Source of the DNA: Promethearchaeota archaeon
GTDB lineage: Archaea; Asgardarchaeota; Lokiarchaeia; Sigyniarchaeales; SOKP01
Length of the DNA stretch: 47,088 nucleotides
Assembly (NCBI GenBank): GCA_048939015.1
Contig: JBHLPW010000016.1
Coordinates: 33,652-80,739 of the forward strand
Direction: 5' to 3'
The translations under genes were made by a program, and so were the position numbers. The notes under the pieces are model-generated. The model made no database searches. It was not told the origin of the DNA and worked only from the letters and a program-made list of their open reading frames with translations. Below, piece by piece: positions 1-5,182 of the stretch; positions within the stretch are counted from its first letter, which is position 1, and every line of letters begins with the position of its first letter.

Positions 1-109
1 TTAAGGAAAAACATGAAACAACTTACACAGGGACTATAGAATAATTAGGCAAAAAAGTCAAATTTTAGCAAAAAAACCTGATCTGGATTCTTCAAAGTTT
101 ATTTCTACT

Positions 110-895
110 TTGAATGCAGGATTAACAAAATTCTTAGAGTTGTCTTTTGCTCCATTCATTTCAATGTTAAATTCTTGGAGTGAAAATATGATCCGAAATA
201 CAGTTGAGAAGAATTTACAATTAAGAAAAGATTTGATGGCAATAAAAACCAAATTAAGTGAAGGTATTTCAAGTTTACAAAAAGATTTTAAATTTTCATT
301 AAAGGAACAATTAAATGATTTAGATATATATATTGACGATAAATTCGAAGAATTTGATTTTGATCATGAAAATTCTAAAAAACTTCTTGTGGATGTTGAA
401 ATTGAATTAAATCAACAATTTAAGTCAATGTTCGAGGAGAAATTCCAAAAGTTAATACAAGATTATTTAGTTCAATTTAATGATTATATAAATGAATTAA
501 ATGAAATAAATAGCAAAGCATTAACTAAATCTGAACTTTTAGAAGCACAAAAGAATATTTTAGAAGGTCTTAGCAAAAATATTACTTCAATAGAAAATAG
601 AAATACTGAATCATTAGAGCAAAAAGTAGAAGAAATATCCGGAAATTACACTAAAAATGCTAATAAAGTTATTGGTAACTTTATTAATTTAAATAAGGAA
701 GCAAAGAACTTTCTTTCAGATTTAAAAGCTGCTATTATATTATTAGAAAGTACAAAAACACCTCTACAAAATAAATTGGACAGTCAAGAGGTAGAAATTA
801 AAACTCTTAAGAAAAGCATTGCAGAATTAAAGAGTAACAATGAAAAGCTATTATCTAAATTAGAAAAATTAGAAAAAAAGGAGGAAACGGGATAA
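110..895 (+). CDS. Long helical/coiled-coil protein, paralogous to the C-terminal region of the downstream JAMM protein; true 5' end uncertain
   Basis: Heptad-rich E/K/L/N sequence. Aligns without gaps by eye over ~120 aa with the helical tail of 896..2269. The frame is open upstream to position 17. Its TAA abuts the next ATG. Confidence 0.7.
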   Translation: MNAGLTKFLELSFAPFISMLNSWSENMIRNTVEKNLQLRKDLMAIKTKLSEGISSLQKDFKFSLKEQLNDLDIYIDDKFEEFDFDHENSKKLLVDVEIELNQQFKSMFEEKFQKLIQDYLVQFNDYINELNEINSKALTKSELLEAQKNILEGLSKNITSIENRNTESLEQKVEEISGNYTKNANKVIGNFINLNKEAKNFLSDLKAAIILLESTKTPLQNKLDSQEVEIKTLKKSIAELKSNNEKLLSKLEKLEKKEETG

Positions 896-2269
896 ATGCC
901 TAAAAATCAACAAATTGATAATTCCAATGAAAATAAAGGAGATATTTTCATTAAAAAAGAAGCTTTTAGAAATATGTTAACTCATGTTTTACGTTTTGGT
1001 AGTAATGCGTTAGAAAAAAGCGTTGAAGTATTGGGAGTTTGCCTTGGAAAATATGATCCTGCTGATGAGAGTATCATCATAGAGAATGCAGTACCAATAA
1101 CTCATGGAGACAAGGTCGAAATTGGATTTGATAAAGAAATGTATGAATTATTTGTGCAGATAGGGAATAAATACTCATTACCATTAATCGGTTATTATCA
1201 TTCACATCCATCATGGGGATTATATCTCTCAGAAAGTGATTTAACAAATATTCAATTTTTTCAAAATGATAAATTCCCTAAAGGATTCTGTATCGTTTTT
1301 GACCATACTCTAATTGGTAAAAATGGGAATCTGGGATTTGAAATATATAGATTAGACAAATTTTCAAAAACTGATAAATATCATACAGTACCTTTCGAAG
1401 TTGAAATTCCAAATTCTTTAGAATATTTCAAATGGGTTCAAAAATTCTCAGAAGATTTTCAGAAAAAAAATCCAATTCTTATCAAAGAAATCAATGAATT
1501 TGCTGAACCTGTTTCAGGAGATTTACAGGAAATCCCCGGATCGGATGATTTAGAAACGATTGAAGAGAGTACAATAGAATCATTAGAATTAACGGCACTT
1601 GATTCAGGATTTTATAATGGGACAGAAAAACTCTCTGAGATGTTTCTAGACATAACTAAAAATCAAATGGGAAATTGGATTAAAGATATAGATCAAGGAA
1701 CATCAAAAGGATCTGAATATATAAGCAAAGCAGTTAATAAAATGCAAGATGCAATCTCATCAGGATTAACTAAGGTTGATACATGGTTTAATAAAACTAT
1801 GAATAACGCTATAAAGGAATTTAAAAAGAGTGTCTCTAATTACGTGAACTCTCGTGTAGATAGAAATAAAGAAATTATTAAAGATATATCCAATATAAAG
1901 GAAAAATTCTCTAATAATCTGAAAATTGTCTTTGAAGAAAGTATCTCACCCATTAGAACCAAGATGGAAAATCTAGCAAATTTATCAAAAGGAACAGTTG
2001 AGAAAAATAATCAGACAATTTTGAAATTTGATGATAAACTGAATACTTTTAATTCTTTATTAATAGATATTGAAAAGCAACTAAATTCTACTACTCAATA
2101 TTTTGAGAAGAAAATAGAAGATTCTAAAACAACATTAAATACAAATATTGATGAAAAAACGGAAAAATTGAATACTGAATTAAATCAATTTAAAGAATTT
2201 AACAATGAAATAAATTCTTTATTGGAAAAACTTCAAAAAGCAATTACAGGATTCCGAAATTTAACGTAA
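896..2269 (+). CDS. MPN+/JAMM (Rpn11/CSN5-like) metalloisopeptidase domain fused to a long C-terminal coiled coil
   Basis: VEVLG (catalytic Glu) and GYYHSHPSWGLYLSESD match the JAMM motif E-xn-HxH-x7-S-x2-D. CIVFD..GFEIYRL strands follow, then ~230 aa of amphipathic helices. Confidence 0.9.
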   Translation: MPKNQQIDNSNENKGDIFIKKEAFRNMLTHVLRFGSNALEKSVEVLGVCLGKYDPADESIIIENAVPITHGDKVEIGFDKEMYELFVQIGNKYSLPLIGYYHSHPSWGLYLSESDLTNIQFFQNDKFPKGFCIVFDHTLIGKNGNLGFEIYRLDKFSKTDKYHTVPFEVEIPNSLEYFKWVQKFSEDFQKKNPILIKEINEFAEPVSGDLQEIPGSDDLETIEESTIESLELTALDSGFYNGTEKLSEMFLDITKNQMGNWIKDIDQGTSKGSEYISKAVNKMQDAISSGLTKVDTWFNKTMNNAIKEFKKSVSNYVNSRVDRNKEIIKDISNIKEKFSNNLKIVFEESISPIRTKMENLANLSKGTVEKNNQTILKFDDKLNTFNSLLIDIEKQLNSTTQYFEKKIEDSKTTLNTNIDEKTEKLNTELNQFKEFNNEINSLLEKLQKAITGFRNLT

Positions 2270-2710: not shown

Positions 2711-5182
2711 ATGTCTGGTAATCAAAAGCAATCAAAGAATTCTAAAATAGAAACTAAGAAAAAACAAGACAAACTTAAATCATTCAAACTCCCTAGCACT
2801 CCAAAATTGGGAAAAAGAGGGATTAAAAATAAGTTTAAAGACTTTTCTTCAAGACAAAGAGGAAAGCTAAGCCGCTTTAAAGATAGAATGAAGCGGAGTT
2901 TTTATGATAAGATAATCCACCAAGAAGTTTATCTTGATGGGCAAGAGCCACCATCATATTCTTTTCAAAAAAGATTTTTTGGTTTATATTTCATATTTAT
3001 ATTTTATTCGCTAGTTTTAATTGTATCAATAAATTTTCCTGGATTATGGATTAATGCTTTAACGTTTGGAAATCCATTCGTATTTTCAAATGCCATAGTC
3101 GCGTTTTTTCTAGTTTTATCAGTCGTGCTTAGTAATGACAAGGTCAGAATTTTTATCTATGAAAAAAATTATGTGATTAAGCAATTAATATTATATTGTG
3201 GCATTTTTGTAGGTTTATTCATCTTATTTCTATATATTGGTACAAGTATCAATTTTTTATCATATTTATTAGGTCTTGGAATGATTTGGTTATTCCTATT
3301 GAGTAGTAGATTTTATATTTACTCACGTAAATTTTCCACTAAAATTGAAGCAAGATTCATTAAAAAATATTCAATTCTAAGATATTTTATTGCTATAATC
3401 ATACCATTTATAATATTAGGAGTGTTAGTTATTATTTCATTATTTTACAGAAGTTTTTTAGTATTTTTGTCATTAGATTTTTTTGGACCTAGCAATCCAA
3501 GCAGTGCTGTTGCAGTATATAGATTAGAAATGACAAGGATTATGCCTTTAATGTATTTTAGCTTAGTGATGACGCTTGTATTTATCATCTTTGAATATGT
3601 ATCTACAAGGCGACGTGCTGAAACTAAAAGAGCTGGCACATTTGATAATTTAACGTTTGCTCTGATAGTTTTTTTTATATTTTTCTTTCAGATTTTACAA
3701 ATTAGCATCTTTATGTTACTCCAAGATGAGACTATTAGTGCTTTTAAATCAACGATTGGAGCAACTGGTTCTGCAGTTTCATTTATTTTTATATTCGAAT
3801 TTATTATATCAATGTACTTTTTATATCGTGTTGTGAAGAAGCTGGGGAAATCACTTGGTTGGCGAATTATTATCTTTAAAAAAGATGGTTTGATTCTTTT
3901 TTGTTTAGCATGTGTTTTTGCTCAAACCTTTACACGTTTTACTCTTGCTAATGAAATACCAAATCAGATTATCTCTAATGTGGGCGTATTTTTGATGTGG
4001 GATAAGTATATTATCTCAGTATTGATGATCTTTTTCCTAGGTACCACATTATTAGTTTATTATATAAAGCCTCATGAAACATCGATGTTTATGAGATTAC
4101 AAAAAGAAACTGTAAGCGAAGAAGAAAGAAATTTAGATAAGGTTTATAAAATTATTAGAAGTGAATATATACGAAGAGGCGAGGCTTATCCAATAGAAAT
4201 TATTGAACGAGAATTAATTAAATCAACACAATTATCAAAAAGTAGTGTCTATGAACTTATTAATACTTTAGTAAAGAAAGATATGGATATCTTAATTAGA
4301 GAAGTTAAGCAAGATTTAGGCAAACCCGTAAAAATGCTTGATTTTGTGTCAGTAACTGAACGTTTTGAGAAAAAGGAAGTTGCTCATAAGAAGGCAAGGA
4401 GCTATTTAAGCGAAAGATTATTTGAAACTGCTATTGAAAAAAAAAGTTCTGTTAGTAGACTAACAAAAAGTTTAAAAACTGATCAGCCAGCTGATAGTCT
4501 TATCTCATCCTTAGCCTCTGATTATAGTAGAAAACACAGAGATAGAGAATTATTAAAGCAAAAAAGAAAGGAAGCACAAATTTCTTTTACTGCAGAAGAT
4601 CTTGCTGAAGATTTAGAAAGCCAAATAATAAATATCATAAAAAAAGAATATACTTTTCGTTTAGAAAACCCTGAGAAATCTCCAGATTTTTATATTCCCA
4701 TCTCTGAAATGACAAATATAATTGAACGAAGAACTAAAGTTACTCCCGGAGAGTTATACCCTATTTTAGAAGAATTGAATAATAAAGATATTGAACTTAT
4801 ATTAGTTGAGAATCCTGAAGAGCCAGAAGATAAAAAAATTAAATTTTTACCATTTGCTGATGGCACCATGAGTTTTTCCTTAGCATATTTTAGACCAGAA
4901 GAATATTCTGAATTTAAAATTGTAGTTATTAAAAACTTTTTAAAAGCCTTAAAAACTAAGAAAGAAAAAAGACAACTTTTTCAACTAAAAAAGGATATAC
5001 CAGATCGAACAGAGGAACAGAGAGTTTTACTAGATTTATTGAATAATTTATATAAATATTATCCTCTATATTCAGAGCAAATTACCCAAGAACCTGATAC
5101 AAAGAAATTATTAAAGCAACTAGATACTTGGATTAAAGCACTTGAAAAAATTGATTCTTTAAAAAAGTCGAATTCTGCATAG
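2711..5182 (+). CDS. Polytopic membrane protein (~11 TM) with a basic N-tail and a cytoplasmic C-terminal region containing two winged-helix-like repeats
   Basis: Hydrophobic segments over aa ~90-455. Internal repeat VYKIIRSEY..YELINTLVKKDMDILI / IINIIKKEY..YPILEELNNKDIELIL. Confidence 0.75.
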   Translation: MSGNQKQSKNSKIETKKKQDKLKSFKLPSTPKLGKRGIKNKFKDFSSRQRGKLSRFKDRMKRSFYDKIIHQEVYLDGQEPPSYSFQKRFFGLYFIFIFYSLVLIVSINFPGLWINALTFGNPFVFSNAIVAFFLVLSVVLSNDKVRIFIYEKNYVIKQLILYCGIFVGLFILFLYIGTSINFLSYLLGLGMIWLFLLSSRFYIYSRKFSTKIEARFIKKYSILRYFIAIIIPFIILGVLVIISLFYRSFLVFLSLDFFGPSNPSSAVAVYRLEMTRIMPLMYFSLVMTLVFIIFEYVSTRRRAETKRAGTFDNLTFALIVFFIFFFQILQISIFMLLQDETISAFKSTIGATGSAVSFIFIFEFIISMYFLYRVVKKLGKSLGWRIIIFKKDGLILFCLACVFAQTFTRFTLANEIPNQIISNVGVFLMWDKYIISVLMIFFLGTTLLVYYIKPHETSMFMRLQKETVSEEERNLDKVYKIIRSEYIRRGEAYPIEIIERELIKSTQLSKSSVYELINTLVKKDMDILIREVKQDLGKPVKMLDFVSVTERFEKKEVAHKKARSYLSERLFETAIEKKSSVSRLTKSLKTDQPADSLISSLASDYSRKHRDRELLKQKRKEAQISFTAEDLAEDLESQIINIIKKEYTFRLENPEKSPDFYIPISEMTNIIERRTKVTPGELYPILEELNNKDIELILVENPEEPEDKKIKFLPFADGTMSFSLAYFRPEEYSEFKIVVIKNFLKALKTKKEKRQLFQLKKDIPDRTEEQRVLLDLLNNLYKYYPLYSEQITQEPDTKKLLKQLDTWIKALEKIDSLKKSNSA

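Follow-up and report, generated by a model that had tools for sequence, protein, structure and literature searches.

Paired MPN domain subunits, one active and one inactive, are a hallmark of the ubiquitin machines of eukaryotes: the proteasome lid, the signalosome, eIF3, and BRISC. Solved MPN dimers include Rpn8–Rpn11, CSN5–CSN6, and BRCC36–Abraxas. In the last of these, an MPN+ enzyme and an MPN paralog are joined by MPN contacts and by C-terminal coiled coils, and MERIT40 is the VWA subunit of the BRCA1-A and BRISC complexes. Here, we describe two abutting genes at the start of a 47,088-nucleotide stretch of DNA (the window; C85:33652-80739, contig JBHLPW010000016.1) from a 4.86-Mb Asgard metagenome-assembled genome (MAG) of ∼29% G+C. 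The first, JAMM-A (A), has as its 3′ part the open reading frame ORF1; the second, JAMM-B (B), is ORF2; and a third JAMM gene of the locus is termed C. The A–B pair is a real, conserved, and apparently undescribed archaeal variant of the MPN heterodimer theme, with a biochemistry that we infer.

Heterodimers of the Rpn11–Rpn8 type were stated to be unknown in archaea in a paper of 2018 (PMC6043591), and no description of the A–B pair was found in searches of the literature. The Rpn11 of Caldiarchaeum subterraneum (CsRpn11) is, like A and B, a eukaryote-like archaeal MPN+ enzyme, and its structures (PDB 6fjv and 6fju) are the top sequence match of A (E = 2.9e-9). The crystal homodimer of CsRpn11 also uses helices H1 and H4 (PMC6043591). 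However, a lone gene within a ubiquitin/E1/E2/E3 operon encodes CsRpn11, which is a monomer in solution, whereas A and B have no ubiquitin-system neighbors and carry long tails. An Asgard ubiquitin operon with its JAMM gene is present elsewhere in the genome of the window, on C5.

As with Rpn11–Rpn8 and CSN5–CSN6, A and B are two paralogous MPN subunits that always occur together, their predicted interface uses the first and fourth MPN helices together with the C-terminal helices, and one subunit keeps its motif where the other has lost catalytic residues in many species. Unlike in those pairs, B is not MPN− in the window, its motif being intact in 37 of 77 species and degenerate in 40; the tails are helices of ∼230 residues rather than short helices within a PCI helical bundle; and the A–B cluster has no PCI domain gene. 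Because the pair is restricted to one Lokiarchaeia-type lineage, it looks less like the ancestor of the pairs in eukaryotes than like a parallel, lineage-specific duplication.

The likeness to BRCC36–Abraxas and BRCC36–KIAA0157 lies in the pairing of an MPN+ protein with an MPN paralog, the tails of which are predicted to pair, and BRCC36 is among the sequence and fold matches. A VWA domain protein is encoded near A–B too, in 65 of the 80 loci considered below, but this is a ChlI/ChlD-like AAA+–VWA fusion without a shown relation to MERIT40. Furthermore, partner B, unlike that of BRCC36, often still has the catalytic motif, and no UEV subunit, as BRCC45 is in BRISC and BRCA1-A, was seen with A–B. 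A conserved archaeal pair would add to Asgard biology a second JAMM system that is independent of the ubiquitin operon. With A always intact and B ranging from intact to fully degenerate, it would also be a tractable system in which to ask how, and for what reason, a catalytic partner becomes a scaffold.

Gene A is split by a scaffold gap

ORF1 as listed begins with a TTG codon at nt 110, upstream of which the first stop in frame is a TGA at 14–16. The sequence-only reading of this DNA had taken it for a helical protein starting at about nt 86; what it encodes is the tail of an MPN+ gene, the MPN+ domain of which lies upstream. A run of 10 Ns (L001 9991–10000; C85:33642–33651) ends immediately before nt 1 of the window. 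The 14-nt sequence AAAGTCAAATTTTA is found immediately before these Ns and again at window positions 54–67 (+), with both copies in frame, marking the overlap of two contig ends. Upstream of the gap is a 215-codon MPN+ ORF (C85:32997–33641; L001 9346–9990) that ends in ...FPSESQIL, and the check for an MPN domain in the upstream sequence, suggested in the same reading, returned one in frame (PF01398, E = 4.7e-11) with the JAMM motif GWYHSHPGLDIFFSSTD.

Joining the two pieces at the repeat restores the frame (...E S Q I L A K K P D...) and gives 215 + 275 = 490 codons, as compared with a length of 488–493 aa for the A family. The homologs P0124, P0128, and P0130 are uninterrupted across the junction, where they read FPSESQ[IV]LAKKPEL. 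Some homologs of ORF1, of 408–450 aa, have a JAB domain at the N terminus, and their JAMM motif is intact; orthologs of A carry PF01398, and that in the closed genome CP070805.1 is 491 aa long. The A frame is unbroken, at 488–500 aa, in 10 of 10 other genomes of the genus, and it is uninterrupted in all 80 species loci too. The in-frame stops at nt 2–4 and 14–16 sit inside ∼53 nt of unaligned sequence that directly follows the gap (window positions 1–53), in which no frame matches the homologs. Because the homologs read through, the repeat restores the frame, and the frames of the genus are uninterrupted, nt 1 to ∼53 are best taken as contig-end junk lying outside the gene. On this evidence, ORF1 is the 3′ part of a full-length MPN+/JAMM gene, with positions 56–895 (+) of the window holding ∼279 codons for the linker and helical tail of a protein of ∼490 aa. 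The scaffold gap thus turns one gene into a false “helical protein,” and automatic annotation will miscall both halves.

Gene B and the type of enzyme

The stop codon of ORF1 (TAA, 893–895) adjoins the ATG of ORF2 at 896, as had been read from the sequence, and within the last codons of A there is a Shine-Dalgarno-like GGAGG (880–884, +), 11 nt before that ATG. A and B are probably translationally coupled.

B (896–2269, +) is complete and encodes 457 aa, comprising an MPN+ domain, a disordered linker, and two long helices. Its MPN/JAB domain (PF01398, E = 4.4e-10) spans residues 17–201 (944–1498, +) and holds helices H1 (21–34) and H4 (174–189). The upstream catalytic Glu is E44 in VEVLG (codon at 1025–1027, +), a residue aligned in nearly all B proteins, and the JAMM motif H-x-H-x7-S-x2-D, here HSHPSWGLYLSESD (residues 102–115; 1199–1240, +), is intact, all of its ligands being present. 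There follow an acidic linker (residues 193–242; 1472–1621, +), for which the predicted local distance difference test (pLDDT) score is below 50, and a tail homologous to that of A, made up of helices 239–367 and 374–456 (1610–2263, +). These boundaries come from an AlphaFold 2 model with a mean pLDDT of 70.8.

When the B model was compared with solved structures by Foldseek, Rpn11 chains from Rpn8–Rpn11 crystals ranked first (E = 3e-11; template modeling score 0.70–0.74 on the Rpn11 chain), followed by CSN5, Caldiarchaeum Rpn11, eIF3, and BRCC36. By sequence, the nearest solved relatives of ORF2 are CSN5 and Rpn11, and for A, B, and C alike these two give the best sequence and fold matches, with the Caldiarchaeum protein among the best solved relatives. 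The earlier suggestion of an intact motif in an Rpn11/CSN5-like context is therefore borne out by the PF01398 match and by both kinds of comparison. The MPN fold, the catalytic Glu, and H-x-H-x7-S-x2-D are all present in A and in B, and A would be a zinc isopeptidase of the Rpn11/CSN5 type, acting most likely on ubiquitin or a ubiquitin-like tag, which it would remove.

Possible substrates of the ubiquitin type exist in this organism, since its genome encodes ubiquitin-like proteins, with genes near C35:16.3 kb, C116:51.8 kb, and C5:31–33 kb, and E2 enzymes. The genome also encodes seven MPN+ proteins; in every one the JAMM motif is complete, and most continue into a long C-terminal extension (167–536 aa). 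Further loci of this kind lie at C5:35668–35997, C87:23923–24270, C32:71617–71916, C90:74041–74373, and C85:31481–31849. One MPN+ gene is located in a cluster of ubiquitin-like and E2 genes on C5, and another adjoins an E2-like gene on C32. The former region, C5:31–36 kb, is a canonical ubiquitin/E2/JAMM cluster with a JAMM gene of its own.

A and B are paralogs with a family-specific helical tail

The sequence-only reading had aligned ORF1 without gaps to the tail of the JAMM protein over 120 aa. That alignment holds 15/120 identities and a BLOSUM62 score of 38, which ranks 14th among 20,700 windows of the same length, and BLASTP of ORF1 against ORF2 reaches no better than E = 0.043, with gaps and in another register. 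The pairwise comparison is too weak by itself, and full-length homologs and profiles were therefore used. The full-length A homolog P0130 aligns collinearly with ORF2 at E = 3e-37, with 26% identity over 427 aa, and does so in the register originally noticed. When profiles of the tails only were compared with hhalign, the probability was 98.9% (E = 1.7e-17) and the score 123 over 224 columns, as against 40 for a reversed control and no more than 21.6 for 20 column shuffles. The homology first seen in the pairwise alignment is thus real and withstands the shuffled controls, and A and B are, by these profile and full-length comparisons, paralogs over their whole length, each with an MPN+ domain and a helical tail of ∼230 aa.

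In a Pfam scan, the tails matched families such as apolipoprotein, phasin, and Baculo_PEP_C, but no match came near its cut-off (29 versus 90 bits); an apolipoprotein- or phasin-like identity was rejected, matches so far below threshold being treated as helical-repeat noise. Searched against 1.84 billion representative proteins, the tail profile gave 26 matches at or below 1e-30, all of A family length or shorter (fragments). Members of B and generic long coiled-coil proteins appeared only at 1e-7 to 1e-19, and neither another domain partner nor a named family emerged from this search. As far as these searches reach, the helical tail is specific to the A/B family.

Distribution and gene order

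Homologs of ORF2 (∼196) and of A (∼385) all come from Asgard MAGs. Among 200 sampled genomes of the phylum, full-length A is present in 40 of 40 genomes of the GTDB family to which the window belongs. A single sister-family genome also has it, and the remaining families matched at the level of the MPN domain only. On this sampling, the A–B pair is confined to a single family-level lineage of Asgard archaea of the Lokiarchaeia type.

Gene order and motif states were followed in 80 species-representative Lokiarchaeia-type loci, titled Promethearchaeota or Promethearchaeia. With the window included, there are 81 loci, and in 79 of them B comes immediately after A on its downstream side; both exceptions are contig ends. 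In the 78 loci other than the window, the interval between the two genes ranges from −32 to +57 nt, with a mode of 6, and in at least 10 MAGs A and B bear consecutive NCBI locus tags. Wherever B is present, in 79 loci, its frame is open and of the length typical of the family, two copies being cut by contig ends. The synteny check put forward with the original observation thus shows the pair to be conserved. Because all genomes that bear the pair belong to one lineage, the conservation of gene order is in part shared ancestry.

A number of the MAGs with JBHL* accessions are labeled Hodarchaeota, Hermodarchaeota, Thorarchaeota, or Odinarchaeota (L008, L017, L020, L024, L026, L029, L031, and others). 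These labels look unreliable, because their A and B proteins are 60–80% identical to those of genomes labeled Promethearchaeia or Loki.

Motif decay is confined to B

The JAMM ligands H, H, S, and D are complete in A of all 80 species, compared with the 37 of 77 already given for B. The degenerate B proteins fall into 14 patterns: IRTT, LRTT, HRSD, LHSG, SHSE, SHSS, SHSA, LHTD, VHTD, IHTD, IHKD, IHRD, IHVD, and CNAH. By parsimony, the motif states of B require 10 changes if mapped on the A tree, where strongly supported branches force five or more, and six if mapped on the B tree, with A as its root, where such branches force four or more. Both trees were made quickly and have some long branches, and the counts are approximate; they suggest that the motif was lost independently at least some 4–6 times. 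The basal B lineages carry an intact motif, so B would have begun as an MPN+ protein of the active type. It has kept its place beside A even where three or four of the four ligands are gone, including throughout one clade of ten species.

The MPN domain of B diverges ∼1.6 times faster than that of A (mean identity 0.49 versus 0.68). Its most conserved columns are on helices H1 and H4, not at the active site, and the predicted interface shows an excess of conserved columns (18/35 versus 50/165, p = 0.019). The asymmetry fits an arrangement of one obligate catalytic subunit with a partner kept for a non-catalytic role.

One degenerate motif, GWY[IL]SRPGWGLDFT[ED][IV]T, recurs in two B clades that both trees place at a distance from one another (L021, L022, L029, L030, and L038 in one; L052–L054, L056, L059, L061, L068, L071, L082, and L083 in the other). 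An Arg in place of the second His also arose independently in the HRSD group. A swap of the whole domain was rejected as an explanation, because the MPN domains of the two clades are 51% identical to each other, as compared with 61% to their intact sisters; the shared motif may have come about by convergence or by short-tract gene conversion.

A predicted A–B complex

The pair modeled was the complete A and B of the closed genome CP070805.1, each chain being supplied as an alignment, and the modeling covered the A–B combination as one heteromer with three controls. The complex scored 0.67 (0.60, 0.70, and 0.67 in separate runs), and the best of the controls 0.00. In a benchmark, the mark for this score is reached by 58 of 80 solved complexes and by 2 of 110 mismatched pairs, counts that hold only roughly here, since our own alignments were supplied. 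The runs agree in at least 87% of contacts, and the pLDDT of the partners is at least 69. In the model, H1 (11–29) and H4 (170–195) of both chains form a helical bundle, and the tails, each modeled as a pair of long helices, are in contact in register over ∼190 residues (252–448 against 251–443). The multimer prediction proposed as a check on the pair therefore supports binding of A to B, at the level of a prediction.

A lineage-specific heterodimer and its alternatives

The reading that we favor, with moderate confidence, is that A and B make up a lineage-specific heterodimeric module resembling a deubiquitinase. A would be the constant catalytic subunit and B an auxiliary partner with a dispensable active site of its own, complete here and repeatedly lost in relatives. 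The MPN domains of the heterodimer would be held together by a bundle of four helices, H1 and H4 from each subunit, and the two homologous tails of ∼230 residues would zip together in parallel register. A heterodimer held by C-terminal helices had already been proposed in the sequence-only reading, and that part is favored by the strict adjacency of the genes, the one-sided decay of the motif, and the complex prediction. The anatomy of the partner, on the other hand, has had to be redrawn: A, which had been presented as the helical-only member, is a full MPN+ paralog, better conserved than B and with a motif that is always complete. The pair would have deubiquitinase activity.

Several observations weigh against this picture. 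There is no ubiquitin, E1, E2, or E3 gene within the A–B cluster. All carrier genomes are of one lineage, so that conserved gene order by itself says little about function. In the window's genome neither active site is degenerate, and B therefore need not be a mere scaffold. In contrast to B, the conserved columns of A show no enrichment at the interface (15/37 versus 90/173). The passing model may in part reflect likeness to known structures, because solved MPN dimers exist, and as its score covers the heteromer only, A–A or B–B homomers would be compatible with the data.

In one alternative, two independent JAMM enzymes would have no more than an operon in common. Each would act by itself or as a homodimer, with a substrate of its own, and B copies with a degenerate motif would be pseudoenzymes that serve some other function or genes that are being lost. 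Consistent with this are the two intact motifs in the window's genome, the seven MPN+ paralogs, which point to a family that is expanding and diversifying, and the precedent of Caldiarchaeum Rpn11, which is monomeric in solution, together with the differences among JAMM crystal dimers (PMC6043591). We nevertheless consider it unlikely: B is retained beside A at family length where three or four of its four ligands have been lost, its conservation peaks on H1 and H4 rather than at the active site, and the heteromer model passes its controls.

In a further alternative, the pair would be a subunit of a larger machine, the target of which is not ubiquitin. This might be a coiled-coil scaffold or a membrane-associated assembly working with the AAA+–VWA protein, or A–B might act as a peptidase that removes tags made by the ATP-grasp ligase encoded nearby. 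The MPN domains are closest to enzymes specific for ubiquitin and NEDD8, which argues against such a target, even though the cluster lacks ubiquitin-system genes. The apolipoprotein- and phasin-like matches of the tails could hint at membranes or scaffolds, but they are the far subthreshold ones described above, and the tail profile recovers only the A/B family and generic coiled coils. The conservation of the neighbors (Zn-ribbon, 77/80; third JAMM, 72/80; AAA+–VWA, 65/80; ATP-grasp, 57/80) speaks for this alternative, but they lie on the opposite strand or beyond intergenic gaps, in genomes that are close kin, and a functional link to A–B is no more than possible. We regard this alternative as distinctly improbable.

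The original anatomy, in which an MPN-less helical ORF1 pairs by coiled coil with a single JAMM protein, is scarcely conceivable and is refuted for the A family by the intact full-length frames of all relatives examined: the frame within the window is indeed bounded by stops and holds no MPN domain there, but the stops lie in the junk behind the 10-N gap, an MPN+ domain in frame is found just upstream across the 14-nt overlap, and the frame is uninterrupted in the ten other genomes of the genus and the 80 species loci.

If the favored heterodimer of A and B is extended to its neighbors, A–B, C, the Zn-ribbon protein, and the AAA+–VWA protein might together be one multisubunit deubiquitinase machine, specific to Lokiarchaeia and arisen independently of the lid, the signalosome, and BRISC. 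This is a tentative idea, and one that we think on balance doubtful. Were it true, a partner subunit would have been caught at every stage from active enzyme to pseudoenzyme, in a natural replay of how the MPN+/MPN− pairs of eukaryotes evolved.

Neighboring genes

Downstream of B and convergent with it is a gene for a 99-aa protein (2278–2577, −; 71 of 80 loci), which closes the A–B transcription unit, and beyond this one for a multipass membrane protein of 823 aa (2711–5182, +), with a counterpart of ∼800 aa in 66 of 80 loci. On the other side, the ATP-grasp, AAA+(ChlI/D-like)–VWA, and C genes are all on the strand opposite to A, at the frequencies given above, and the Zn-ribbon gene is on the same strand, ending ∼180 nt before A. 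No PCI match was found by Pfam in the AAA+–VWA, third JAMM, Zn-ribbon, 99-aa, 823-aa membrane, and MFS neighbors; the remainder of the genome gave weak matches to PF01399 (PCI), of a kind that control genomes returned as well.

The Zn-ribbon protein (228 aa; L001 8442–9128, +), encoded outside the window just upstream of A, has the conserved linear motifs APISETK.VELEKVPESELKRP..QGWVK and RQLPSIP and a C-terminal CPxCG...CPYCG ribbon. Its N-terminal domain of ∼100 aa folds confidently (pLDDT ∼90), with no clear fold match in Foldseek (best E = 0.17) or VIA-align (best Z = 6.9, to a designed protein). Between the ATP-grasp and AAA+–VWA genes (L001 2585–4675, −) are genes for a 179-aa Zn-ribbon membrane protein and a 407-aa β-helix-like protein, probably a recent insertion, since each is present in only 1 of 80 related loci.

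Gene C (PF01398, E = 5.2e-15) is uninterrupted in the window's own genome (L001 7245–8201, −). In 11 of 60 species (L013, L016, L017, L019, L026, L028, L035, L037, L038, L056, and L071), the catalytic motif is interrupted by an insert of 30–32 nt, placed exactly where the HSHPGF codons meet those of KVMMSHID, as at L016:5495–5584 (−). It brings in stops or a frameshift and contains an internal hairpin with compensatory changes, and the flanks of the exons can pair (RNAalifold, −7 kcal/mol and three covarying pairs). The insert may be a spliced mini-intron.

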